From Candidatus Jordarchaeales archaeon (GTDB lineage Archaea; Asgardarchaeota; Jordiarchaeia; Jordiarchaeales; Freyrarchaeaceae): a stretch of 32,000 bases of DNA. The stretch's first letter is position 1. Every line of letters starts with the position of its first letter. The notes below the pieces were generated by a model that made no database searches, was not told the origin of the DNA, and saw only the letters and a list, made by a program, of their open reading frames with translations. Below, piece after piece: positions 3,278 through 23,115 of the stretch. Made by a program: the position numbers and the translations under genes. The stretch is taken from NCBI GenBank assembly GCA_038889235.1, contig JAWAHN010000003.1, positions 263,703-295,702 of the forward strand. Reading direction: 5' to 3'.

Positions 3278-4267
3278 ATGGGTTCTAGGCCGGTGGTTGA
3301 GCTGCTCGAGGAGCTTAAGGAGGGTGACCCCTCAAAGCTCCCGTCGACACTAAGCGAGCTATGCTCGTACGCTGAGCAGGGTGTCTACGATCCGGACGTC
3401 CTCCCACTGTTGAGGAAAGTGATTGAGCCACAACAGGATAGCGGGGTTCTTGTTTGCGCGCTACGCCTCGCCTCCCTCTACTGCTCGGAGGGCTTATTTC
3501 ACCGCGAAGTAGCTGAAAGCGTGCCCCCCCTCCTGAACCACGAGAGTGACAGCGTTAAGGCTCACGCGCTGTACTTCCTCGCAACCTGCGCCCGCAGAGG
3601 GGTAGTCTGGGAGGAGGTGTTCGAGAGAATGGTTGAACTTATCCGCTCTGACGCTGTTGAAGTCGCACTTATGGCCATCGAGGCACTCATAGCTTACGCT
3701 GAGGAGGGGGTGACTTTTCCAGGCGTTCTAGAAGCGGCGATAGACGTGCTTGAGTGGGGTGACAGCAACCTCCAGGCGTCAGCGTTGAGCTTGTTGAGTG
3801 TCTACGCAGAGAGGGAGATGCTCAACGAAAGGTTCCTTAAGTACGCTCCCTCGCTGCTGAGCTCAGAGGACGAGGCTGTTCGACTGGAGGCGGCGTTATG
3901 CCTTTGGAGGTACGCTGTAAGGGGTTTGGTGAGCGATACGGCTGTGGGGCCCTTGCTAAGGATGCTCGGAAGCGACTCTTTCAGCGTCCAGTCAGCGGCG
4001 GCACGCGCACTCTGGAGGTACGCTAAGTTTGGTGTCGGGGGGCGCAAGGCGGCTGACGAGTTAGCGCTTCTGCTCAGCTCGGAGAACACGTTTGTGAGGA
4101 GGGCTGCAGTCTACGCTTTGCTCCTCTATGCTCAGAGTGGGGTTTTATCTCCCGCCGCCGCGAGCGTCTTTCCATCCCTGCTGGGGGACAAAGATGAGGG
4201 CGTCAGGAGGGTGGCACTCCAAGTAATAGAAGAGTACGAGAAGAGGGGTGGAGGAGTGCTTGACTAA
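3278..4267 (+). CDS. HEAT-like repeat (alpha-solenoid) protein
   Basis: About nine ~36-aa repeats of the form L..LL.S.D..VR..A..AL..YA..G, e.g. LLSSEDEAVRLEAALCLWRYA and LLSSENTFVRRAAVYALLLYA. Confidence 0.8.
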   Translation: MGSRPVVELLEELKEGDPSKLPSTLSELCSYAEQGVYDPDVLPLLRKVIEPQQDSGVLVCALRLASLYCSEGLFHREVAESVPPLLNHESDSVKAHALYFLATCARRGVVWEEVFERMVELIRSDAVEVALMAIEALIAYAEEGVTFPGVLEAAIDVLEWGDSNLQASALSLLSVYAEREMLNERFLKYAPSLLSSEDEAVRLEAALCLWRYAVRGLVSDTAVGPLLRMLGSDSFSVQSAAARALWRYAKFGVGGRKAADELALLLSSENTFVRRAAVYALLLYAQSGVLSPAAASVFPSLLGDKDEGVRRVALQVIEEYEKRGGGVLD

Positions 4268-10953: not shown

Positions 10954-11662
10954 TGGAGCATATCTAGACGTGGTTCCGGTGTTATATGCGTAGTCTGGGT
11001 TCCAGTGGAAGCCCCAGTTCCCCAGGGGGGTCGTTTATTGTTCTACTCGTCCAGTATGTTCCGGATATTTTGTTGTAACAATCCTCTATTTTTCCGCCTC
11101 TAGCTGTGGTCGAGCAGTTGGCCCTGTAAATGCTGCTCTCGAAAGTGTAGTGTGTCCCGTTGAAGCTCCACCACACCTCGTTCGTGTATGTTTCGACTCC
11201 ACTATCTGTGTCGTTGTAGTAGACGTAGTAAGTTTTCGTGGAATTAGCGTTGAGGTTGATGTAGAAGGTTAGTGTGAGGGATTTGTAGTAACTTGTCCCA
11301 TCCCAGTATGTTTCGTTCCAAACTTGGCATGGTACTAGTTGCCAGCTGTTTCCATCGTAGTACCGTACTCTTATGCTGTTATTGTAGCATGTTCCACTGC
11401 TAAAAGTGAGGTAGACGTCTACGGGTTGATCCACGTGGTCTACGTTTGATGTGTCCGTGAAGTTGATTTGGAGCCTATACCTGAAGGAATAGTTCCATCA
11501 TGGTGGGTTGAACTGTTTGGCTGTAATTGCTTGTTCGCCGGCGTTTGATGGAGGAGGGAATGGAAAGGCTGGCTGGGGGGAGGGGGTTACCGCTGCAACT
11601 AGTGGAAGAATTACTGTTACTAGTAGTAAGACACTTAGAAGGTGCTTGAGGCGCACGCCCAT
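7891..11662 (-). pseudogene. Disrupted large membrane-anchored surface glycoprotein (signal peptide, DUF2341-like N-terminus, Ig-like repeats, one TM helix, acidic cytoplasmic tail); ~1256 aa if repaired
   Basis: ATG at 11662 opens a signal peptide (MGVRLKHLLSVLLLVTVILPLVAA). An in-frame TGA at 11498-11500 falls in P-P-*-W-N-Y-S-F-R-Y-R. The frame then continues into the 150-aa ORF. Removing one base in the C6/G4 tract at 11020-11030 joins it to the 1020-aa ORF (..N-D-P-L-G-N-W-G-F-H-W-N-P-D-Y..). Confidence 0.8.
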
Positions 11663-11733
11663 TTTCGATTACTCTCCCAGAAACTTGTTGACGCTCACTT
11701 TTTCTGGGAAAAGTTGTAAGATTAACATTTACT

Positions 11734-11750
11734 TATTAATTTTTTCGTAA
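11734..11750 (-). promoter_or_regulatory. Putative BRE/TATA promoter of the surface protein gene
   Basis: The minus strand reads ACGAAAAAATTAATAAG about 75-90 nt upstream of the ATG at 11662, in an AT-rich tract. Confidence 0.4.
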
Positions 11751-12719
11751 AATGCTACCAAAATATGACGAAAATATATTGTTGTTTATTGATTTTCCGT
11801 TAAGGTAATTTTTTAGTTTTGAAACTATCGCTTTATGCAGCTGAAATTAGAAGTTACGTCTTGCCTTAGTTTTCGGTAATTCCCGGGTTTTTGGCATTCT
11901 GGTTTTAGTGCTTGGATTCTGGAGGAGTACTCTTGCGTTTCGCTTGTGTTTCAATGTTAGACCTCAATGTTCCTTTTAGATTTTGGTTTGGCCACCTTTA
12001 CGCACGCCGGCTCTAAAATCCAGCACAAACAAGTGTTGCAAGTAATTCTTACGCCAAGCACGTCTACACCAATCTGGTAAGGAGACACACTAAACCCGGG
12101 AAACGGTGCGATCCTGCTAGGGGGTTTTGGAGGAATTCTGGGATTTATGTGTCTTAATAAGTGTGTTGTTCTAGAGGAATTCGTATCTTGACGCGTGCTG
12201 GATGCTTAACGTTCTGTTTTGATAGCTTTTAGTTCACGTTATTTGAGCCCACCGAGGACTTGTTTCTCTAACCTCCTAGGATTCCATGGTCGTATTGCAC
12301 TTCAACCCTTACCTGACTCCTCCGCTATTTCATTAGTTTAACTTACGAACAAAGCCCCGGCTTACCCTAAGTGCCTAGAATGTTTTTGACAGTTTTCCGA
12401 TACTTTAGGCTTAATCCCCCTTTGATCTTTTTGTTTTACCGAAGCTTCCTGGGTGAGGCTTAGCAATCTGATAGAGTTCTTTTCTCTTGCCGCTTCGGAG
12501 CTTAATTGGAGTGTAAGCATTTCTGTGTGTTTCTTGGCTTTAGTGGTTTCAGTGACTTTATGCGGTTAAGAGGGGGTGCGTGTAGCTGGCAGGTGTTCAG
12601 TACACCTATTCTTAGAGATTGTTGAAAGGAGGTGACTGCTGGGGTTTTGCTTCTTCGGGAGAAAGTTTGACTTGTTATTTTTTGAGCAGGAATGGTGCAT
12701 TGGATTAGTGAAGGGTGGT

Positions 12720-13538
12720 TCAAGTTTTAGCGGCTGGTGACGAAGGGTTTATGGTTTTTCTTTTTTCGGGTTGTCCTTTGAAGATTATTATGTCGCTTAT
12801 TGTTGGTAGTTTTCTGGCTATTGTGTCTAGTGTGTTTAGTATGGTGTCTGCGGCCTTCTTCGGCATCTTGCCGAGCAGCTTCCCCCAATGTGGAAAGCTC
12901 CAGAAGAGAGATAGCCCTTCGATGTGGTTGGCTTTTAACGCGCCTTGCGTGTATGCTTTGAGGGTTTTGTAGTCGACTCTCAGTGTGTGGTCCTCTGGCA
13001 TGTCCCAGGGTCTCCTCTCGCCCTCTCTCAGCCCCGAGAGTCCTAAGGCGTCTACTAGTCTCGCTAGCTTGAAGCCTAGGCTCTCCATGTTCGCGACAGA
13101 TATCACCGCTCTTCCTTCCGGTTTGAGGACACGGGCGAATTCGAGTATCGAGCGGCGCGGGTAGTGGAAGTGGTCTAGGGCACCTTTGCATATGAGCGCG
13201 TCGACCGCGTTATCCCTGAATGGCAAGCATTCGCTGGCACCCTGAACTATGTCCGCCTCGACGCCACATCCAGCCACATAGCGCTTAGCCTTCATAACCA
13301 TTATTTTTGAAACGTCCACTCCAACCACCCTGGCGCCCTGCTTAGCCATTCCGACCACTTCTATTCCCAGTCCGCAGGCGACGTCGAGCACTACGTCTCT
13401 GGGTGAGAGTGAGAGGGCTTTTATCGTCCTCGGCCCCATCATCCTAAAAACGAAGTCCGAGTCGGCGTTCCACTCGGGGGGTATAGCTCCCTCGTCACAC
13501 CACTCGACAACCTTCTTCCTCTCATATGTGTGCTTCAA
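12720..13538 (-). CDS. Class I SAM-dependent methyltransferase (Methyltransf_11-like)
   Basis: VLDVACGLG motif I, GVDVS, LPFRD..VD, LDHF and ARVLKPEG. Confidence 0.88.
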   Translation of the reverse strand: MKHTYERKKVVEWCDEGAIPPEWNADSDFVFRMMGPRTIKALSLSPRDVVLDVACGLGIEVVGMAKQGARVVGVDVSKIMVMKAKRYVAGCGVEADIVQGASECLPFRDNAVDALICKGALDHFHYPRRSILEFARVLKPEGRAVISVANMESLGFKLARLVDALGLSGLREGERRPWDMPEDHTLRVDYKTLKAYTQGALKANHIEGLSLFWSFPHWGKLLGKMPKKAADTILNTLDTIARKLPTISDIIIFKGQPEKRKTINPSSPAAKT

Positions 13539-13587
13539 GGTGAGCCCACCTGAGAGTGCTGCAAGGCGTTAATAAAAGAAAAAGATA

Positions 13588-14214
13588 TTATTTTTTCCTG
13601 CGCGAAGTCAGAGGCTTCCTAAACACCGCGGTTATGTTCATCCCGACATAAGATGAAACACGGGATTCCTCCACTTTTGCCCAGTTTTTCTCGAAGAGTT
13701 TTAGTAAGCCTTCGGGTATGCGGAGCCAGCGGAGCTTCTTGATACCGGTTGCAGATATAGGCCACGAGCCCCACCCGGTTGTCTTCACGAGTTCTAGGTT
13801 GTAGCGCTTGGCGATCCTCTTCATGTCGAACACGCTGCAGCTCCGCTCCCATCCCATGGGCCAGCAGCCCAACGCCACTAAGAACGATTTGTAGATGTGG
13901 TAGAGGGAATACTTTTGGGGGGCGTCGATCACTATGAAGCCTCCACGCCTGGTGACGCGGATCTTCTCGCGAAGCAAGTTGTCCGGGTTTTTGAAGTGTT
14001 CTATTAGACCTTGGGAGAAAACCACGTCGAAGGACTCGTCTCTAAATGGGAGCAATTCACCGTCAGCCTGTTGGACATCTACCTCACTCCACTTGGATGC
14101 TATGATGTTTGAGGTCGCGTAGTCGACGGCGCATACGCGTGCGCCAAGCCTGGCAAGGTAGCCGCTGTCAACTCCGCTTCCGGCTCCAACCTCGAGCACC
14201 CTTAATCCCTTCAA
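13588..14214 (-). CDS. Class I SAM-dependent methyltransferase; start codon uncertain
   Basis: VLEVGAGSG, AVDY, LPFRDESFDVVFSQGLIEHF and RVTRRGG. No clear RBS before the TTG at 14214. Confidence 0.85.
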   Translation of the reverse strand: MKGLRVLEVGAGSGVDSGYLARLGARVCAVDYATSNIIASKWSEVDVQQADGELLPFRDESFDVVFSQGLIEHFKNPDNLLREKIRVTRRGGFIVIDAPQKYSLYHIYKSFLVALGCWPMGWERSCSVFDMKRIAKRYNLELVKTTGWGSWPISATGIKKLRWLRIPEGLLKLFEKNWAKVEESRVSSYVGMNITAVFRKPLTSRRKK

Positions 14215-14328
14215 CTTGTAGTTGAAGAGTGGCAGTATTTGCCTTAAAATGTGGGTGTGCGGCTTGTCATTTGGCTTAGCAAGTAGGAAGAAAAAATGCC
14301 CAGTAGTCTTTGAGGCGGCGCCTGTAGC

Positions 14329-15948
14329 TTAGTTGTGCTTGTTCTTCTGCGCCTCTACTAGTGGGGCATACTTTCTCCTCAGTTCCTCGTTGGAGGCCCA
14401 ATTCCAGACTGCCACCCCGTTTTCTAACTTATAGCCTAGCAGACCCATGTCCATGTAGTATTTTATAAACGAGTGTACGAGCTCTAGCGGGATCTTCCCC
14501 TCTAGTCGGGCGACATCGAAGATCCTTTCCGCTAGGCGGAGCGCTGGGTCTGTTCCGTCATATTGTATTCGTCCGTAGCGCTCGATTAGGTCCCATTTGA
14601 GGAGGTGCCATGCAAGCTTCTGTTTGCGTCTTACTTTGAGCGCCTCCACTTCTTCTGGTGGTAGGAGCCCTTGGTCTGCCATCCTAAACCTCTTTTTCAG
14701 CTCCTGCATTATCGCCTTGTTGAACTCTCTGACCACCTTGTTCAGGTACTCCGCGCTTACCGCTTGTGTGTGCGCCACAGCCCTGTTAGCATCGTACTTT
14801 AACCAATTGTCTGTGAGTATGATTATTCCAAGCTCGTTCGCCCTCTCCCTCACCTCTGTCCCGGGGAATGGTGCTAAGAGGTGGAAGCCGTAGAACGGCC
14901 CGAGCTCTTCGGCGAACTTCATTGTCTGAGCTATGGTTTCCTTTGTTTCGCCGGGTAGCCCGAGTATGAACGAGGAGAGCACACCTATTCCGAGCTCCTT
15001 CGTCATCTTTACGGCTTCCCTGATCTCCTCCACGGTTATCCTCTTCTTGCACTTATCGAGGATGTCTTGGTTTCCGCTCTCGGTGCCGAACATTATGAAG
15101 TGACACCCGGCTTCCTTCATCTTCTCCAGTAGCTCCCTTGTCACTGTGTCGACTCTGGCGTTAGCACACCACTTGAACTTGAGACCCCTACTGATTATCT
15201 CGTCGCATATGGCGAAGGCGTGCTTGTGATTCAAAGTGAACGTGTCGTCCTCGAAAATTATCTCGTTAAACCCGTAGCCTAAAACCTCCTCTATCTCGTC
15301 TACGACGAGCTTCGGGTTCCTGAGCCTAACCCTTCTCCCCATCATCTTGGAGCCAACGCAGAATATGCACCTGTGGGGGCATCCTCTCCCGGTGATGAGA
15401 CTGCAGCCAGAGTGGTACGCGATGTACTTTGAGAGGGGGAGGAGGTGGCGTGCCGGGAACGGGAGCTCGTCTAGGTTCTCTATAAGCTTCCTGTCTCTGT
15501 TCCTCACTATTTCGCCATCCTCTCTGTAGGTTATCCCGTCGATGTCCTTGAAATCCCTCCCCTTAACTATGTCTAGCATGGTGTACTCTCCCTCTCCCCT
15601 AACCACGACGTCTATCCACGGCGACTCCTCAAGCGTTCGGACGTCGCTAAAAGTCACGTGCGGGCCGCCTATAACCGTTATAATGTCCTCGTTTACCTTC
15701 TTCACTAGCTTGAGTATTTTGGAGGCTATGGGGTAGTTCATTGTGACGGAATTGACGCCGACAACCTCCGGCTTGTATTCCTCGACCTTCCGGGTGACTT
15801 TATCATCAGAATACATTGAGACAAGGAGGTCTAGCACTTCAACCTCAAACCCGTTCTTCTCGATGACGGCGGCAATGTAAGTTAATCCCAGGGGGATTGT
15901 TGGGCACTCGGAGAACTTGTAAGGAGTGTTTATTAGTAGAGTTCTCAT
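14329..15948 (-). CDS. Cobalamin-binding radical SAM protein (class B-like) with a ~150-aa C-terminal extension
   Basis: N-terminal B12-binding domain (PLGLTYIAA, GGPHVT, VVRGEGE), CPHRCIFC at 15358-15381, FEDDTF, FGTESG, GLPGET and PFPGT. Likely start is ATG 15948 after GGTGG; the ORF is open to 15987. Confidence 0.92.
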   Translation of the reverse strand: MRTLLINTPYKFSECPTIPLGLTYIAAVIEKNGFEVEVLDLLVSMYSDDKVTRKVEEYKPEVVGVNSVTMNYPIASKILKLVKKVNEDIITVIGGPHVTFSDVRTLEESPWIDVVVRGEGEYTMLDIVKGRDFKDIDGITYREDGEIVRNRDRKLIENLDELPFPARHLLPLSKYIAYHSGCSLITGRGCPHRCIFCVGSKMMGRRVRLRNPKLVVDEIEEVLGYGFNEIIFEDDTFTLNHKHAFAICDEIISRGLKFKWCANARVDTVTRELLEKMKEAGCHFIMFGTESGNQDILDKCKKRITVEEIREAVKMTKELGIGVLSSFILGLPGETKETIAQTMKFAEELGPFYGFHLLAPFPGTEVRERANELGIIILTDNWLKYDANRAVAHTQAVSAEYLNKVVREFNKAIMQELKKRFRMADQGLLPPEEVEALKVRRKQKLAWHLLKWDLIERYGRIQYDGTDPALRLAERIFDVARLEGKIPLELVHSFIKYYMDMGLLGYKLENGVAVWNWASNEELRRKYAPLVEAQKNKHN

Positions 15949-15994
15949 CAGACCACCCTTATCACTATTAAGGTCTCTTTTTCCCACATTTCAC

Positions 15995-16717
15995 TTAAAA
16001 TGTTTGCTGTCCATTGCCCCGTATTTTTTTGAGATAAAAGACCACGCTTTTCGGAAAAACATGGTTGAAAAGCTTTTCTATGAGCCTCAGCGGCTTAACA
16101 TGCGGGGAGTATATGAGGAGCACCCTCCAAAGGGAGGGGATTAATGCCTTCTCGTTGTCGAGCCCTGCCAAGCATCTTAGCAGCCAGTACACTGTGTGGA
16201 GAGCGTGCTCGTAGCACTTCCTTGCGAGGCTCAGCCCTCCATCCTCAAGTTTCTCCAGCAACCTCTCCTCCCTGTATATCTTTATGTGTCCTCCTGGGCT
16301 CCTAAAGTACTTCGCCGATAGTCTGCCGTACAGCCTTTCAGACGACCTCGTGGGCACGCTTACGGCGACTATCCCCTTGTCATCTAAAACGCGCACAAGC
16401 TCACGTATAGCCTCCCTGTCCTCCCTTATGTGCTCCAGCACCTCCGTGCATATCACCTTGGTGAAGGACTGCTCCTTGAACGGTAGCTTGCGCACGTCAC
16501 CCCGCACTATGTCCGCGTGCGCCCTCAGCTCCCCTTTATGATTCATTAGTTTCACGACGAAAAGTACTTTCAACAAGTCTATGCGTGAGACGTCCAGAGC
16601 AACTATGCGGCACGGCATCTTGGCTATTGAGAGAGTGTGCCTCCCGTCTCCGCAGCCGGCGTCGAGCACAGTGTCCTTCTCTCTTATCCTGAATATGTTA
16701 AGGTCTATGGTCAGCAT
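15995..16717 (-). CDS. Class I SAM-dependent methyltransferase
   Basis: VLDAGCGDGRH, LPF...SF.KVICTEVLEHI, AVSVP and GGHIKIY. Overlaps the upstream GT4 gene by 20 nt. Confidence 0.9.
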   Translation of the reverse strand: MLTIDLNIFRIREKDTVLDAGCGDGRHTLSIAKMPCRIVALDVSRIDLLKVLFVVKLMNHKGELRAHADIVRGDVRKLPFKEQSFTKVICTEVLEHIREDREAIRELVRVLDDKGIVAVSVPTRSSERLYGRLSAKYFRSPGGHIKIYREERLLEKLEDGGLSLARKCYEHALHTVYWLLRCLAGLDNEKALIPSLWRVLLIYSPHVKPLRLIEKLFNHVFPKSVVFYLKKIRGNGQQTF

Positions 16718-17942
16718 CTAGAACCTCCATGTAGACTTTCTCCAGCTCTTTAGCTGCTTTCTCCCATGTGAAGAGGCGCTCAACTCTCTCCCTTCCCTTC
16801 GCGCCCATGCGTGCCCTCAGCTCCTCGTCTTCTAGGAGCCGAGCAGCGGCTTCAGCTAGCTTCTTCCAGTTTCCCGGCTCCACGAGTATCCCGGTAACAC
16901 CGTCCTCGACGACTTCAGGGAGCGCGCCCACCCTGAAGCCTACGACCGGCTTCCCGCAAGCCATTGCCTCGACCGCTACAAAGCAGAATCCTTCGAACAT
17001 CGATGACAGCATGACGAGGTCTGAGCTGGCGTACTGCCGGGCTAGCTCCTCTATCGTGAGGAAGCCTGTGAAGGAAACGTCATCCTGCAAGCCGTACTCT
17101 TTTATGAATGGAGGGGCGATCCCTTCCTCCTTGAACTTGTCGACAATGGTGAGCTTCACGTTGAGCCCCAGCTCTTCCTTCATATACTTGACAGCTCTCA
17201 GCAGGAGTCCTATGCCCTTAACCCTGTTGTCTGTGTTCCCCACGAAGAGCAACTTGTAGTAGTCTCCGTCCCTGCTACCTCCATCCATTGGCCTGAAAAC
17301 GTTTACGTCTACACCGTTGTATATGACCTTTATCTTTCTCTCTGGAACCTTGAAGTACTTTGTGATGCTTCTCGCCGACGTCTTAGAGACGGTTATCACT
17401 TTGTCCATGAAGTTGGCGACTATCGTCTGCATGAACATCGGGTAGAATATGATCTGCTTGAATCGCTCCTTAGTCGTCCTTGCAAGTCTCATCGCCATTA
17501 TCCTGTCTATGGGCAGGGGGTGGTGGATTGTCGCGAGCACCGGGGTGTTTAGAGCCTTCATGAGGATCAAGCCGTACCCAAGGCACTGGTTGTCGTGTAT
17601 TAAGTCAAACTTTTCCTTCCTTATCAGCTCCTTAACCTTGAAGAACGACCTTATGCTGAAGCTGAACATCTCAGGGAATATACCTATTCTAGCCAGCGTG
17701 TACTCGTAAGCTGAGAGAAGAGAGAAGTTTTCCGTGGTCAGCCGCTCCCCGCTGAACTCGCTAAACTGTGGAGTCTTGATTTTGTGCACCACGGCCCAGT
17801 CCATCTCGAACGGGTAGGGTGGGCCGACAATCACGTGAACTTCGTGTCCAAGCCTTGCAAGCTCGCGGGAAACGTAGTAGAGGTATACTCCCTGCCCGCC
17901 GCAGCTCATACTACCCCTGTAGCTCAGGAGGCAGATCTTCAT
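16698..17942 (-). CDS. Glycosyltransferase family 4 (GT-B, retaining)
   Basis: LLSYRG..CGGQGVY, GHEVHV, HDNQ.LGYG, TIHHP, YNGVD and EGFCFVAVEAMACGKPVV (E-x7-E). ATGA overlap with the upstream GT4. Confidence 0.92.
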   Translation of the reverse strand: MKICLLSYRGSMSCGGQGVYLYYVSRELARLGHEVHVIVGPPYPFEMDWAVVHKIKTPQFSEFSGERLTTENFSLLSAYEYTLARIGIFPEMFSFSIRSFFKVKELIRKEKFDLIHDNQCLGYGLILMKALNTPVLATIHHPLPIDRIMAMRLARTTKERFKQIIFYPMFMQTIVANFMDKVITVSKTSARSITKYFKVPERKIKVIYNGVDVNVFRPMDGGSRDGDYYKLLFVGNTDNRVKGIGLLLRAVKYMKEELGLNVKLTIVDKFKEEGIAPPFIKEYGLQDDVSFTGFLTIEELARQYASSDLVMLSSMFEGFCFVAVEAMACGKPVVGFRVGALPEVVEDGVTGILVEPGNWKKLAEAAARLLEDEELRARMGAKGRERVERLFTWEKAAKELEKVYMEVLDADHRP

Positions 17943-19207
17943 TTTCGCCTCTCCATAGCCTCTTTAAAGATGTTTAGGTACTTTTTCACAGCTATCTTGA
18001 CATTAAACTTTTCCTCCGCGATTCTCCTGGCTGCGAGCCCCATGCGGCTTCTGAGCGCCTTGTTTGACAAGAGGCGTATTATCCTGTCTGCGAACGCCTC
18101 TACGTCACCGGGCGGGACCAGAAACCCGTTAACACCGTCCTCTATTTGGACGCTGACCCCGCCGACGTTATAGGCGACGACCGGTCTCCCGGAGGCCATG
18201 GCTTCTGTTATGGCCAGCCCGAAGCCCTCCATCTTCGACGGTAAAACCACCACGTCAGCCATCTTGTACGCTTTAGGGAGCAGCTCGGGCGGCAGGTATC
18301 CTGTGAATATGACGTCCTCCTTCAACCCCAACTCCTCAACGAGATTGAAAATCTTCTCTTTGCGTTCATCCCTAATGCCTAGCACGTTCTCGCTCAGGGA
18401 GCCGTTGCCGACGCATACTAGGTTAGCCCACCTCCTCGCCTCCTTGACTATGGTGAAGGCTTTTAGGAGGTCGTCGTGGCTCTTGACGGGGTCTATGCGG
18501 GCGACGCAGAGCACGACCTCGCCGTCGGCGGGTATTCCCAGTTCCTCCTTGAACTTTTCGCCCTCAGAGTTCGGGATGTTGAAGCGGTCGACGTCAACGA
18601 AAGGGTGAATGCATTTTATCTTCCTTCTCGGAACTCCGAGTCTTTCGGCGTGCTTAACGTAGGCTTGCGTCGAAAACACTACGGCGTCACACTTGCTCAG
18701 CCGCTTGGCCACCATCGACCCCAGTTTTTCCCCCATTTTTTCGGTGAAGGGCACATGCCACGTGTAGACGAGGGGGGCGCCTGCCTGAAGGAAGTCAGGG
18801 ACGAAGAAGACCTGCCAGTCGTGAACGTTGATCACGTCGAACGGATCCAGTTCGTGGAGCTCGTCAATCTTAGAGGCGATAAGCTTAGAGAAGGACTGGA
18901 ATACGTCAAACCCCTCCCAGCTCCACTCCCCCTCAGTTTTCAAGCCGTGAATCTGTTCGTAAAGGTTCTCTTTAAAAAAAGCATACTTTTCCCATTCGGC
19001 GGCTTTATCAAAACCCACCCTGTAAACCTTAATACCCTCGATAACTTCAAAGCTTGGGATGGGGGGTTTTCCCAAGTGTACTTCGGTCACATCAACACCA
19101 TACTTTAAGAGCTCACGTGTGAGGTAGTAAAGGTAGTAGGAGACACCGCCGGCAAAGGGGTAAAACGACTGGCTGCCAATACATATTCTAAGTGCTCCGT
19201 CCAACAT
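17939..19207 (-). CDS. Glycosyltransferase family 4
   Basis: GGVSYY, VHDWQ, TWHVPF, VARIDPVK and EGFGLAITEAMASGRPVV. Likely start is ATG 19207 after GGAG; the ORF is open to 19252. Confidence 0.92.
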   Translation of the reverse strand: MLDGALRICIGSQSFYPFAGGVSYYLYYLTRELLKYGVDVTEVHLGKPPIPSFEVIEGIKVYRVGFDKAAEWEKYAFFKENLYEQIHGLKTEGEWSWEGFDVFQSFSKLIASKIDELHELDPFDVINVHDWQVFFVPDFLQAGAPLVYTWHVPFTEKMGEKLGSMVAKRLSKCDAVVFSTQAYVKHAERLGVPRRKIKCIHPFVDVDRFNIPNSEGEKFKEELGIPADGEVVLCVARIDPVKSHDDLLKAFTIVKEARRWANLVCVGNGSLSENVLGIRDERKEKIFNLVEELGLKEDVIFTGYLPPELLPKAYKMADVVVLPSKMEGFGLAITEAMASGRPVVAYNVGGVSVQIEDGVNGFLVPPGDVEAFADRIIRLLSNKALRSRMGLAARRIAEEKFNVKIAVKKYLNIFKEAMERRK

Positions 19208-19585
19208 AAGCTCTCCATCCTTTTCCGCGACAACGGCAAAAATAAAATCCACTACCTTAAATTTAAGAATTACCGTTCCACAAAGTGCCCGGTCCCTCTG
19301 AGACTAGCGGCAGCTCTAGAGAAGGTGGCCAGTTAGGCTGCGTGAGACGTGAAAGCCAGCGCAGTTTCCTGAACAAGTTAAAGTGTAAGGGTGACCAGAG
19401 GAGATGGGAACTCACCGAGGGGCTTTGTCTAGACAAAGAGTAACTTTAAGTCGCTTGAAACAAGGAAGTTAAGACCGCTTCTGTAATTGGACGGGTACAA
19501 GGAAGTTGGCTTCCCGGTAGGGCTTCAGTGAAACTATCACTCGTTTAAAAATTTGAGAGAGCGGTGAAATTTTTCTCGTGTAGGG

Positions 19586-20254: not shown

Positions 20255-20450
20255 AGTCGCGAGAAATGACGAAAGCCAACTTAATGATGGCGAAAAGTTC
20301 AAACAAAACCCGTATCTTTTAACGTAGAACATAATTTATATTACAAAAAATACAATTATCAATAAATATTTACCAAAAGATATATAACGAAGCATGCACT
20401 TGGTGTATTGCAACGCCCTAGGTGGGGCGTTAACACCGGCGGTGGATCTG

Positions 20451-20912
20451 ATGTCCCTAATAAACCCGCTTTACAATGCGATATGCTTTGGCACTCTCAT
20501 GAGCGCTATAGACAAGATAGGAATTCCACTCCCACTAGTGGCAAGGCAGGCTTCGGAGATACTAGCCCCGATAGTCAAAGACCTTGCAAAGACCATTTTG
20601 GGAAATGAAAAACTTCCGGAAAAATTGAGTGAGTTAATGAGTTTTGCAAAGGAAGTCTTGGAGCGCAACGGTGTAGCAGAAAAAATAGAAATGAGAATTA
20701 CTGAAAGCCAGGTTAAAATGAGAATTTTAAGGTGTATGTATCTTGACGTCGCCGGTTTCAGTAAGACTTTGGGTTATAGTGCATGTCCGATCTGCCTTTA
20801 CGTGTTAATGTTTGCTGCAGCTCTTAGCGCAATAAAACTGGCAGAAGTCTCTAAAGCAACGTTCGAAAATAACGGCAGCGAGTGCAACATAGAGCTAACC
20901 CTACTAGTTTGA
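20451..20912 (+). CDS. Hypothetical protein, V4R/hydrocarbon-binding-like fold
   Basis: Helical N-terminus followed by beta strands with C-M-Y, A-C-P-I-C and terminal E-C-N-I-E-L, the cysteine pattern of V4R-like domains. ATG 20451 follows GGCGGTGG, with a TATA-like AAAGATATATAAC upstream. Confidence 0.55.
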   Translation: MSLINPLYNAICFGTLMSAIDKIGIPLPLVARQASEILAPIVKDLAKTILGNEKLPEKLSELMSFAKEVLERNGVAEKIEMRITESQVKMRILRCMYLDVAGFSKTLGYSACPICLYVLMFAAALSAIKLAEVSKATFENNGSECNIELTLLV

Positions 20913-22425: not shown

Positions 22426-23115
22426 CTACACGCGTATCTTCGAGAGGTCTATCGTGAGCACCCTTTCACTCTCATAGGGCCCTGTTGGTTTAAGCTTTAT
22501 CGTGAGGGAGCTTGCTTGGATCGATTTGAGTTCGGGGCTTAGCCTCTCACTGTGAAGCCTATCCATGAGAAAGTCGACAAAGCTGGGGGAGATCTTTTTA
22601 ACTTCGCCACTCACTATGGCTTCCCCGGCTTCGCCCAAGTAGTACTTGTTCCGCCTTCCCTCCTTTTTAACCTGGATTAAGCCCGCCTTAATCATTCTCT
22701 TAATATGCCACCTCATCGTGTCCTGGTGGAGGCCGAAACGCTCCACTATCTCCGACGGGCTTATCCCCGGGTTTGAAACCACGATGTCAAATATCCTTCG
22801 GACGTTTTCGTTCCTTAGAAGAAGGAGGGCTTTCTCTATCTTAGCGCTTCTAAGGTGCTTGGGGAAGAATATGACTCGGCCCCCGAACTTCACTTTCTCG
22901 AGAAGCCCTTCAGCCTCTAGTACTCTGAGATGCCAGGTGAGCGTCCCTGTCGGGATCGAGAGGGCGTTGGCGATCTCGAAGAAGTACGCTCCGGGGTTTT
23001 CGCAAATCCAACGGTAGACCTCTTGCCTCACCGGATGTTCAAGGCACCCGAACCGTTTACTAAGCAGCGTTAAACCCTCCCGCAAACATTTCTTAATAAT
23101 ATTTGGGAAGTTCAA
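22426..23115 (-). CDS. Tandem winged-helix transcriptional regulator (COG3398/ArsR-like)
   Basis: Two wHTH units: HPVRQEVY..I..NPG.YF.EI...L....GTLTWHL..LE and R.IF..V..NPGIS..EI..........WHI..M...GLI...KEGR...Y. Exact start uncertain. Confidence 0.85.
   Translation of the reverse strand: MNFPNIIKKCLREGLTLLSKRFGCLEHPVRQEVYRWICENPGAYFFEIANALSIPTGTLTWHLRVLEAEGLLEKVKFGGRVIFFPKHLRSAKIEKALLLLRNENVRRIFDIVVSNPGISPSEIVERFGLHQDTMRWHIKRMIKAGLIQVKKEGRRNKYYLGEAGEAIVSGEVKKISPSFVDFLMDRLHSERLSPELKSIQASSLTIKLKPTGPYESERVLTIDLSKIRV

Follow-up and report, generated by a model that had tools for sequence, protein, structure and literature searches.

Among the genes of a 32,000-nucleotide stretch of an Asgard archaeal genome (Candidatus Jordarchaeales archaeon, GCA_038889235.1, contig JAWAHN010000003.1; the whole stretch is referred to as the window herein), we found a block of six consecutive minus-strand genes at 12720-19252 that probably encodes a cytoplasmic pathway for a methylated alpha-glycan. 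To judge by homology, this pathway would be an archaeal variant of the system that makes the mycobacterial 3-O-methylmannose polysaccharide (MMP). In order of reading, the genes encode two family 4 glycosyltransferases (GT4a and GT4b), a class I S-adenosylmethionine (SAM) methyltransferase (MT1), a cobalamin (B12)-binding radical SAM enzyme (rSAM), and two further class I methyltransferases (MT2 and MT3). The assignment is carried by GT4b and MT1, which resemble the elongating and methylating pair of the MMP cluster, and by the conservation of the block and of its rSAM in other genomes.

GT4b and MT1 resemble the ManT-pMeT3 pair of the MMP cluster

Upon searching the PDB with GT4b, we obtained a full-length match to entry 7QSG (8.6e-68, 232 bits), with the runner-up at 106 bits. 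The protein solved in 7QSG, ManT, serves the mycobacterial MMP cluster as its alpha-(1->4)-mannosyltransferase; it favors tri- to pentasaccharide acceptors and elongates chains, and its gene opens the order manT-pmeT3-mmpH-meT1 in M. hassiacum and M. smegmatis (PMC9883506). Both GT-B domains are present in GT4b (Glyco_transf_4 and Glycos_transf_1 in Pfam; scores for the GT4 pair were 134 and 163 bits). When aligned to 7QSG, residues G15, K242, E317, and E325 of GT4b fall on G15, K240, E313, and E321 of ManT, and all four are invariant in 15 family members. The glutamates of the EX7E-type motif are likewise present (FEGF..VEAM). In a maximum-likelihood tree, the MT1-associated GT4s, their local paralogues, and the ManT orthologue of Kibdelosporangium formed one 23-member clade (SH-aLRT 99). 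Our prediction for GT4b is a chain-elongating alpha-hexosyl transferase, mannosyl by homology.

The partner of GT4b could be placed through the Kibdelosporangium locus, which contains a ManT orthologue (319 bits to 7QSG), an MT1 homologue, and an MmpH orthologue (315 bits to PDB 7QSJ). MT1 is 40% identical (168 bits) to the methyltransferase encoded between ManT and MmpH at this locus. Because the locus anchors the equivalence, we equate the GT4b-MT1 pair with ManT-pMeT3, which makes MT1 the predicted equivalent of the putative 3-O-methyltransferase pMeT3 in the MMP cluster. Motif I of MT1 reads LDAGCGDG, and the motifs LD.GCG.GRH, LPF, E..EH, VP, and GH are common to 18 members of its family.

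To follow the pair more widely, we scanned named genomes with an alignment of the GT4b family and recovered 80 loci, of which 15 encode ManT-family GT4s (at least 187 bits) and the other 65 generic GT4s. An MT1 homologue lies directly downstream, often overlapping, in 13 of the 15 ManT-family loci and in none of the 65 generic ones. These loci span Chloroflexota, Dehalococcoidia, Deltaproteobacteria/Desulfobacterales, Parvibaculum, Congregibacter, Robiginitomaculum, Kibdelosporangium, and Pseudomonadales, and the pair is kept in Actinomycetota, Desulfobacterota, Proteobacteria, Chloroflexota, Methanomicrobia, and Asgard archaea. An initial annotation of the window, made from the DNA letters alone, had noted a likeness to just such a pair (a GT4 beginning MKICLLSYRG..CGGQGVY and a methyltransferase with MLT.D and GGH..IY) in Actinobacteria and anaerobic Deltaproteobacteria. 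This lead was sound, as the pair is conserved in Actinomycetota, anaerobic Deltaproteobacteria, and several other phyla, and the methyltransferase motifs it named are among those common to the MT1 family; the same annotation had called the pathway unknown, a label that falls away now that the pair is recognized as ManT-pMeT3.

Three further observations concern this pair or its possible sugar donor. A run of A residues in MT1 (16024-16030) is A7 in the window and A6 in contigs of two DNA sequencing runs, a difference that affects no more than the final ~9 codons of MT1 and its stop. On a complete Dehalococcoidia chromosome (L108, CP070667.1), only a 58-residue C-terminal fragment of a ManT-family GT4 (L108 12254-12427) lies beside intact MT1, rSAM, and MT3 genes, where the glycosyltransferase seems to have been lost and the methylation genes retained. 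Lastly, ~4.3-6.5 kb past the end of the window (G000:C3:~300013-302208, locus L132) lies a fused sugar-1-phosphate nucleotidyltransferase/phosphohexomutase ORF of at least 734 aa; its N-terminal half best matches mannose-1-phosphate guanylyltransferase, below the cut-off (280 versus 440 bits), and its C-terminal half matches archaeal GlmM/PMM-type mutases.

The six genes form an operon-like, conserved block

Contig 3, which carries the window, belongs to a genome of 2.14 Mb in 8 contigs with a completeness of 95%. Proteins of the window have their closest named relatives in 'Candidatus Freyarchaeota', Jordarchaeaceae, and Freyarchaeum metagenome-assembled genomes, which places the organism in the Jordarchaeia lineage of Asgard archaea. 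The listing of open reading frames (ORFs) bears out the six consecutive genes of the initial annotation together with their overlaps, a 4-nt ATGA at 17939-17942 (GT4a/GT4b) and 20 nt at 16698-16717 (GT4b/MT1), and Pfam agrees with its domain calls, with Methyltransf_11 scores of 65 to 78 bits for the three methyltransferases (Table 1). The gene-free segments it described on either side are also there, ~1.05 kb downstream (11663-12719) and ~0.33 kb upstream (19253-19585), both ORF-free. Its coordinates held for the block and the overlaps and have to be amended for the starts: GT4a most likely begins at ATG 19207, because alignments of its orthologues begin at residue 15, rSAM likely begins at ATG 15948, and the N-terminus of MT2 is split upstream. 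None of the six proteins was placed in a curated NCBIfam equivalog family.

Table 1 Features of the block and its upstream region in window coordinates, with the extent of each listed ORF.
Feature	Coordinates	Strand	Listed ORF	Remarks
GT4a, GT-B family 4 glycosyltransferase	17939..19207	-	17939-19252	422 aa from ATG 19207; ORF reaches GTG 19252
GT4b, ManT-family GT4	16698..17942	-	16698-17942	414 aa; PDB 7QSG match, clade position; start overlaps GT4a stop (ATGA)
MT1, class I SAM methyltransferase	15995..16717	-	15995-16717	240 aa; Methyltransf_11 65 bits; overlaps GT4b 3' end by 20 nt
rSAM, cobalamin-binding (class B) radical SAM enzyme (P0122)	14329..15948	-	14329-15987	539 aa from ATG 15948, the most likely start, after GGGTGG
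MT2 N-terminal coding segment, remnant or recoded	14215..14340	-		Frame translations compared with L013, L014, L015, L026, and P0362
MT2, class I SAM methyltransferase core	13588..14214	-	13588-14214	208 aa from TTG 14214; Methyltransf_11 76 bits, from residue 7
MT3, class I SAM methyltransferase	12720..13538	-	12720-13538	272 aa, TTG start; Methyltransf_11 78 bits
Divergent intergenic region	19208..19585	.		Between GT4a and the plus-strand HhH-GPD glycosylase gene; no ORF

Comparison with other genomes showed that all six genes and both flanking genes are colinear in two genomes of the same genus (76-89% amino acid identity), and that a genome of a second genus in this family keeps the order MT3-MT2-rSAM as far as its contig reaches. 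The arrangement is thus not due to chance. Each of the six genes is covered by contigs from an RNA library of another study (a sediment metatranscriptome), most of them 95-99% alike, which also bridge the junctions MT2/rSAM, MT1/GT4b, and GT4b/GT4a; being assembled sequences, they show presence in the library and not where transcripts end, on which strand they lie, or whether there is a single one, and carry-over of DNA is possible. The noncoding flanks had little or no cover by these contigs, and such missing cover proves nothing. A second RNA run (X8) yielded one spurious 33-nt piece and nothing else. Taken together, synteny, overlaps, and RNA-library contigs support an operon-like block whose six genes make up one functional glyco/methyl-transfer unit, as the initial annotation had proposed.

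GT4a is a candidate primer-forming enzyme

GT4a has the Pfam domains Glycos_transf_1 (163 bits) and Glyco_transf_4 (63 bits), a TreT_GT1 match at 30 bits, and an EX7E-type motif (EGFG..TEAM). Its best PDB matches, BshA, MshA, and TreT, reached only ~77-94 bits, and it fell outside the ManT clade in the GT4 tree. Relatives of GT4a form an archaea-only group, 57-69% identical within Jordarchaeia and 32-42% in other archaea. Three phosphatase arrangements occur among the relatives in Bathyarchaeia, Methanomethylicia, and one more contig: one GT4 gene is two genes away from a gene of the trehalose-phosphatase type, a second shares an overlap with an S6PP-type HAD gene, and the third encodes a fusion with a HAD phosphatase. 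Since this layout is that of two-step small-glycoside synthesis, a primer-forming role as a small-glycoside(-phosphate) synthase is plausible for GT4a. It had been argued that the block, having no gene that builds a scaffold, probably modifies a core component of the cell. This argument fails because ManT-type GT4s build the chain themselves and GT4a resembles a primer synthase. Among the loci examined, GT4a and MT2 accompany the module (GT4b-MT1, with or without MT3) only in those of the Jordarchaeia type.

The phosphatase association, which recalls two-step compatible-solute pathways, also bears on a different product. GT4a and GT4b could add one sugar each, and the resulting di- or trisaccharide could be decorated by the methyltransferases and rSAM with no polymer made, giving a methylated compatible solute akin to the mannosylglucosylglycerate-type solutes of thermophiles. 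Consistent with this, the stretch is present in hot-spring metagenome runs, from which the organism is known, the ratio of methyl-adding enzymes (three methyltransferases and rSAM) to glycosyltransferases is high, and a product without need of an endo-hydrolase would fit our failure to find MmpH in this genome. We nevertheless consider a small glycoside quite unlikely: the block has no phosphatase gene, the nearest characterized relative of GT4b prefers tri- to pentasaccharides and elongates them (PMC9883506), and in Dehalococcoidia, Deltaproteobacteria, and Actinomycetota the pair GT4b-MT1 is accompanied by MmpH, which hydrolyzes the polymer.

The rSAM belongs to a cross-domain clade associated with MT3 and the GT4b-MT1 module

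The rSAM contains a B12-binding domain (PF02310, 92 bits, residues 30-139) and a Radical_SAM domain (PF04055, 106 bits, residues 198-359) with the CX3CX2C motif CPHRCIFC. This build, an N-terminal B12-binding domain followed by a CX3CX2C core, is that of class B enzymes such as HpnJ and BchE and the structurally solved AprD4, MgmA, TsrM, TokK, OxsB, and CysS. The window rSAM stayed below every NCBIfam cut-off (HpnJ, 253 versus 577; BchE, 223 versus 481; HpnR, 144 versus 650; the lipid B12-rSAM model TIGR04072, 161 versus 360), and its PDB relatives scored at most 95 bits. The match to HpnJ extends over nearly the whole model; NCBIfam annotates HpnJ only as a hopanoid-biosynthesis-associated radical SAM protein, and HpnJ acts on a sugar moiety. 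The initial annotation had pointed out that some archaeal enzymes of this kind tailor tetraether lipids. We saw nothing to link rSAM to such tailoring: its score with the lipid model is low, and it clusters instead with the rSAMs that accompany MMP-like modules in bacteria.

The nearest non-Asgard relatives of rSAM are from Dehalococcoidia/Chloroflexota (55-57% identity). In our tree, rSAMs of Jordarchaeia, Dehalococcoidia, and Deltaproteobacteria formed one clade (SH-aLRT 100) on a long stem, with the Jordarchaeia branch nested among bacterial sequences and a second group of Asgard paralogues outside. The rSAM and GT4 phylogenies are consistent with the inter-domain exchange at which the initial annotation had hinted, and a Chloroflexota-type source of the module would be compatible with the trees, which fit it short of proving it.

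Physical linkage of rSAM to the module was found in three phyla. A deltaproteobacterial locus (L031) encodes ManT-like, pMeT3-like, and MmpH-like proteins, a hexapeptide acyltransferase, and rSAM, its MmpH-like protein being 50% identical to actinobacterial MmpH. In the Dehalococcoidia genome G179, ManT-like, pMeT3-like, and MmpH-like genes converge on MT3 -> rSAM; genome G125 has MT3 -> rSAM; and on the L108 chromosome MT3 -> rSAM converges on MT1 and the GT4b remnant. A homologue of MT3 lies directly upstream of rSAM in the Dehalococcoidia loci L108, L116, and L117, and rSAM always directly follows MT3 in the three linked Dehalococcoidia loci, whereas it sits between MT1 and MT2 in the window. 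MT3 itself (motif I, LDVACGLG) is 36-39% identical to the convergent methyltransferase beside GT4b-MT1 in Chloroflexota-type and Methanomicrobia contigs and to the methyltransferase ahead of rSAM in L108, L116, and L117; MT3 is the conserved third partner of the GT4b-MT1 module.

Of 151 sampled Dehalococcoidia genomes, 14 have an rSAM of this clade and 27 have MT1. MT1 was present in 13 of the 14 rSAM-positive versus 14 of the 137 rSAM-negative genomes (Fisher p = 1.3e-10), a figure inflated by the shared ancestry of the sampled genomes. Since rSAM stands alone, away from the module, on a Chloroflexota-type contig (L109), and no close rSAM was found in two genomes with GT4b-MT1 (G041 and G042), the enzyme is accessory to the module and not obligatory, that is, not part of its core. 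We predict that it modifies the methylated glycan by radical chemistry, most likely through C-methylation.

These distributions also bear on whether the six genes serve one product at all. If rSAM, and possibly MT2, had been inserted by rearrangement and served the methylation of a lipid, cofactor, or peptide, the block would be a loose neighborhood. In the sister Asgard family ('Freyarchaeum', Jordarchaeaceae-type), the corresponding block is GT4a-GT4b-MT1-MT2, lacking rSAM and MT3; rSAM is kept away from it in separate tandem arrays (an orthologue and 4-5 paralogues, 49-61% identical) beside ilvD, PEP-utilizer-domain, DUF7065/7064, and HEAT-repeat genes (L016, G006:C1:3149629-3157652; L017, G005:C389; L110). 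Likewise, most Dehalococcoidia genomes keep rSAM and the module apart, with rSAM adjoining it in only 2 of the 14 rSAM-positive genomes, and the N-terminus of MT2 is disturbed at the rSAM junction in the window. Against such a loose assembly, the adjacency arose or persists independently in three phyla, the rSAMs form a single well-supported clade that co-occurs with MT1 at the genome level, fusions of rSAM with MT2-like domains exist, and one RNA-library contig spans the MT2/rSAM junction. We consider it very unlikely that the six genes serve no common product.

One of the tandem arrays contains a TnpB-like insertion. The window keeps ilvD (469-2145) and the HEAT-repeat gene (3278-4267) ~10 kb from the block, which suggests a remnant of regional synteny with the arrays of the sister family. 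Separately, the last ~54 codons of MT3 (12752-12913) are duplicated with 99% identity ~35 kb away on the same contig (G000:C3:240814-240975; L112:1466-1666), where the copy forms a stand-alone 66-aa ORF beside a nucleotidyltransferase/HEPN-like gene pair and causes an assembly-graph branch in two DNA runs.

The N-terminus of MT2 is split at the rSAM junction

MT2 (motif I, LEVGAGSG) shares 49% identity with the product of the fourth gene in the Jordarchaeaceae-type block GT4a-GT4b-MT1-MT2, and an exhaustive search returned only 18 representatives at E <= 1e-30. Almost all relatives carry ~40 extra N-terminal residues that the canonical-start ORF of MT2 does not have; full-length relatives begin ~40 residues before motif I, e.g., with MKAQLDRRRLKDYWAF... 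in P0362. We located the corresponding coding segment upstream of MT2 in two parts: one, which overlaps the stop of rSAM, is read in the -1 frame relative to that gene ('..AQLSYRRRLKDYWAFF'), the other is read in the rSAM frame ('FFFLLAKPNDKPHTHILRQILPLFNYK'), and one extra base in the T-run GCATTTTTTCTTCC, near 14287-14300, separates them in the window, where the segment lacks a canonical start codon as well. Two DNA runs and one RNA-library contig showed no indel relative to the window at this T-run, so the split cannot be put down to this one assembly.

Both same-genus genomes keep the segment open, with no indels. Its 5' part shares sequence with the 3' end of rSAM, read in the -1 frame, and neither genome has an ATG, GTG, or TTG ahead of it. 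Between the sister genomes, the segment is under purifying selection, with a pN/pS of 0.23 compared with 0.15 for the MT2 core. Programmed -1 frameshifting as the source of this N-terminus gained no support, as no X XXY YYZ heptamer is conserved among the three genus-level genomes, and near-cognate start codons, examined by eye, were not conserved either. We consider three readings of MT2: a truncated enzyme started at TTG 14214, synthesis by non-canonical initiation or frameshifting, or a decaying gene. A recoded protein would include the stretch '...RRRLKDYWAFFFLLAK...', and a truncated one would begin near LKGLRVLE.

Elsewhere, MT2-like domains occur in one chain with B12-rSAM or GT4 domains. 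In P0503 and P0509, B12-binding, radical SAM, and MT2-like methyltransferase parts make up a single protein, and P0503 is encoded at a polysaccharide locus that has a Wzt-type ABC transporter and four GT4 genes. Because their rSAM halves are only 33-34% identical to the window rSAM and belong to another clade, these fusions support the theme of a B12-rSAM and an MT2-type methyltransferase acting on glycans, and not orthology.

Proposed pathway and alternatives

In the pathway that we favor, a methylated alpha-glycan made in the cytoplasm, GT4a, as a relative of compatible-solute-type glycoside synthases, would form a small primer glycoside, which GT4b would extend with alpha-linked hexoses; mannose from GDP-mannose is expected by homology, although the donor is uncertain. 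MT1 would O-methylate each added unit, at the 3-O position by analogy with MMP, and MT3 and MT2 may add further or terminal methyl groups. The class B rSAM would then modify the chain by radical chemistry, most likely by methylating an unactivated carbon of a sugar or of an O-methyl group, yielding a more hydrophobic and chemically novel polymer. The cytoplasmic location is suggested by the lack of any transmembrane-like segment in the six proteins and of a flippase, oligosaccharyltransferase, or polyprenyl-phosphate glycosyltransferase in the block.

Besides the scattered placement of rSAM and the inflated co-occurrence described above, a number of points weigh against this proposal. The product and the chemistry rest wholly on homology, and pMeT3 itself is only a putative 3-O-methyltransferase (PMC9883506). 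ManT D293, the proposed guanine contact for GDP-mannose, is replaced by Ile in GT4b and variable in its subclade; the equivalent of ManT Leu291 is kept. Given the missing Asp, donor and sugar may differ from those of ManT. Within the tree, the subclade of GT4b takes in Chloroflexota, Dehalococcoidia, Methanomicrobia, Spirochaetota, and Asgard sequences, and its sister subclade, of Actinomycetota and Proteobacteria, holds the characterized-type ManT. MmpH was not found in the 95% complete genome at E <= 1 with two queries (actinobacterial and deltaproteobacterial MmpH), which would leave the mycobacterial 'self-recycling' step missing. A PDB search to E = 0.01 with MT3, which takes the place of the cluster's additional methyltransferase, returned generic class I methyltransferases only, with no equivalent of MeT1 established, and MT2 may be impaired in this organism, given its frame-split N-terminus. 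Lastly, a gene for a surface protein of >1000 aa, syntenic in the genus, lies ~1 kb downstream on the same strand; with its Ig-like/CarboxypepD_reg domains, C-terminal transmembrane segment, and many N-x-S/T sites, it leaves room for a role in surface glycosylation.

Such a role would have an oligosaccharide built on a lipid carrier, methylated, and either transferred to the sequon-rich (S-layer-like) glycoprotein or kept as a glycolipid headgroup, with rSAM modifying the glycan or the lipid. Apart from the downstream gene, this would accord with GT4s commonly building lipid-linked oligosaccharides, with weak NCBIfam matches to Agl16 and PglJ, and with the rSAM-MT2-like fusion in the Wzt-type exported-polysaccharide locus. 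Pfam annotation, on the other hand, revealed no flippase, oligosaccharyltransferase, polyprenyl-phosphate glycosyltransferase, or transporter in or adjoining the block, and the six enzymes have no membrane segments. In bacteria and other archaea, GT4b-MT1(-MT3) forms a compact module in housekeeping surroundings that are unrelated to one another, in some cases with the cytoplasmic MmpH, and conservation is lacking in the 1-kb spacer before the surface-protein gene. We regard surface-glycan or glycolipid tailoring as unlikely and retain the cytoplasmic glycan as the probable product.

A bolder form of our proposal would have Asgard archaea and many anaerobic bacteria make a polymethylated glycan with a modification unknown on any polysaccharide, installed by the dedicated B12-rSAM clade, such as C-methyl branched sugars or O-ethyl/O-isopropyl ethers formed by methylation of O-methyl groups. 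In this genus, it might further involve an rSAM-MT2 fused protein or MT2 made by non-canonical initiation or frameshifting, which we considered because the N-terminal segment, though under selection, lacks a start codon and extends into the 3' end of rSAM in the -1 frame. As a whole, this remains a speculative extension that we would not expect to hold.

Comparison with known systems

The block shares with the MMP cluster a ManT-family GT4 with its catalytic residues kept, a pMeT3-type methyltransferase next to it with a coupling-type overlap, and compact organization with soluble enzymes and no export genes. It differs in having no detected MmpH, no recognizable MeT1, a changed guanine-reading residue, and a GT4b from the sister subclade, in adding GT4a, MT2, MT3, and a B12-rSAM, and in its Asgard host. 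Because MmpH was not found and the donor-reading Asp is not kept, we refer to the block as a variant rather than a member of the MMP system.

The MMP-like clusters of anaerobic bacteria (the deltaproteobacterial L031 and the Dehalococcoidia L116) share the GT4b, MT1, and rSAM families with the block, and those of Dehalococcoidia share MT3 as well. Unlike the block, they keep MmpH, the deltaproteobacterial one together with an acyltransferase, and lack GT4a and MT2. We found no description of bacterial MMP-like clusters with an accessory B12-rSAM (L031- and L116-type) in the literature searched, which also described polymethylated polysaccharides (MMP and MGLP) only for mycobacteria and related actinobacteria and contained no paper tying Jordarchaeia radical SAM genes to glycans.

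In the MGLP pathway of mycobacteria, GpgS/GpgP synthesize the primer, the GT4 Rv3032 elongates it, and Rv3030/Rv3037c methylate the product. By this description, the block has the same logic of a primer synthase (the role proposed for GT4a), an alpha-1,4 GT4 elongase, and SAM methyltransferases leading to a cytoplasmic polymethylated glycan. It departs from MGLP in that GT4a is a GT4 and not a GT81 enzyme and in that the block has no phosphatase or acyltransferase; in the PDB search, GT4b was far closer to ManT than to glycogen-type GT4s.

The MMP gene cluster and ManT of mycobacteria are already known. New here are the Asgard form, with a primer-type GT4a, MT2, and no detected MmpH; one rSAM clade that spans domains; the pairing of MT3 with rSAM; the fusions of rSAM with a methyltransferase; and the anomaly at the MT2 junction. 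The proposed role of polymethylated polysaccharides is to buffer fatty-acyl chains. The presence of a ManT/pMeT3-type module in Asgard archaea and several phyla implies that hydrophobic cytoplasmic glycans may be widespread among anaerobes and exchanged between domains. For Asgard biology, the block would represent a candidate cytoplasmic glycan/lipid-handling system acquired with bacterial partners. The B12-rSAM clade, to which no reaction has been assigned, is a tractable place to look for new carbohydrate radical chemistry, and the genes of the block are small, encode soluble proteins, and are suited to heterologous expression.

Flanking sequences and neighboring genes

The block promoter is probably within the divergent intergenic region upstream of GT4a. 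By eye, we noted a TATA-like A/T-rich element, CTTAAATTTAAGG, ~55-65 nt 5' of ATG 19207, with GGATGGAG just upstream of it. A scan for bacterial-type promoters and terminators, a type of scan not applicable to archaea, gave fewer sites than shuffled sequence. Neither the upstream intergenic region nor the spacer at 11663-12719 showed nucleotide conservation with the sister genomes, and a conserved noncoding RNA in the spacer was dropped as a candidate on this ground. No credible RNA gene was found in or beside the block, either with Rfam at the gathering threshold on the whole window, in Rfam E-value mode over 11400-12800, or with ARAGORN.

Downstream, the leader of the surface-glycoprotein gene contains an in-frame minus-strand TGA at 11498-11500 in the window. 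RNA-library contigs of a related strain have C at position 11498, giving TGG (Trp) on the minus strand, so the TGA is strain-specific or recoded. On the far side of the HhH-GPD gene, 20394-20912 encodes a 172-aa ORF with a hydrophobic C-terminal part and no Pfam family, and 22426-23115 is a gene for a double winged-helix regulator (HVO_0163-type/MarR).

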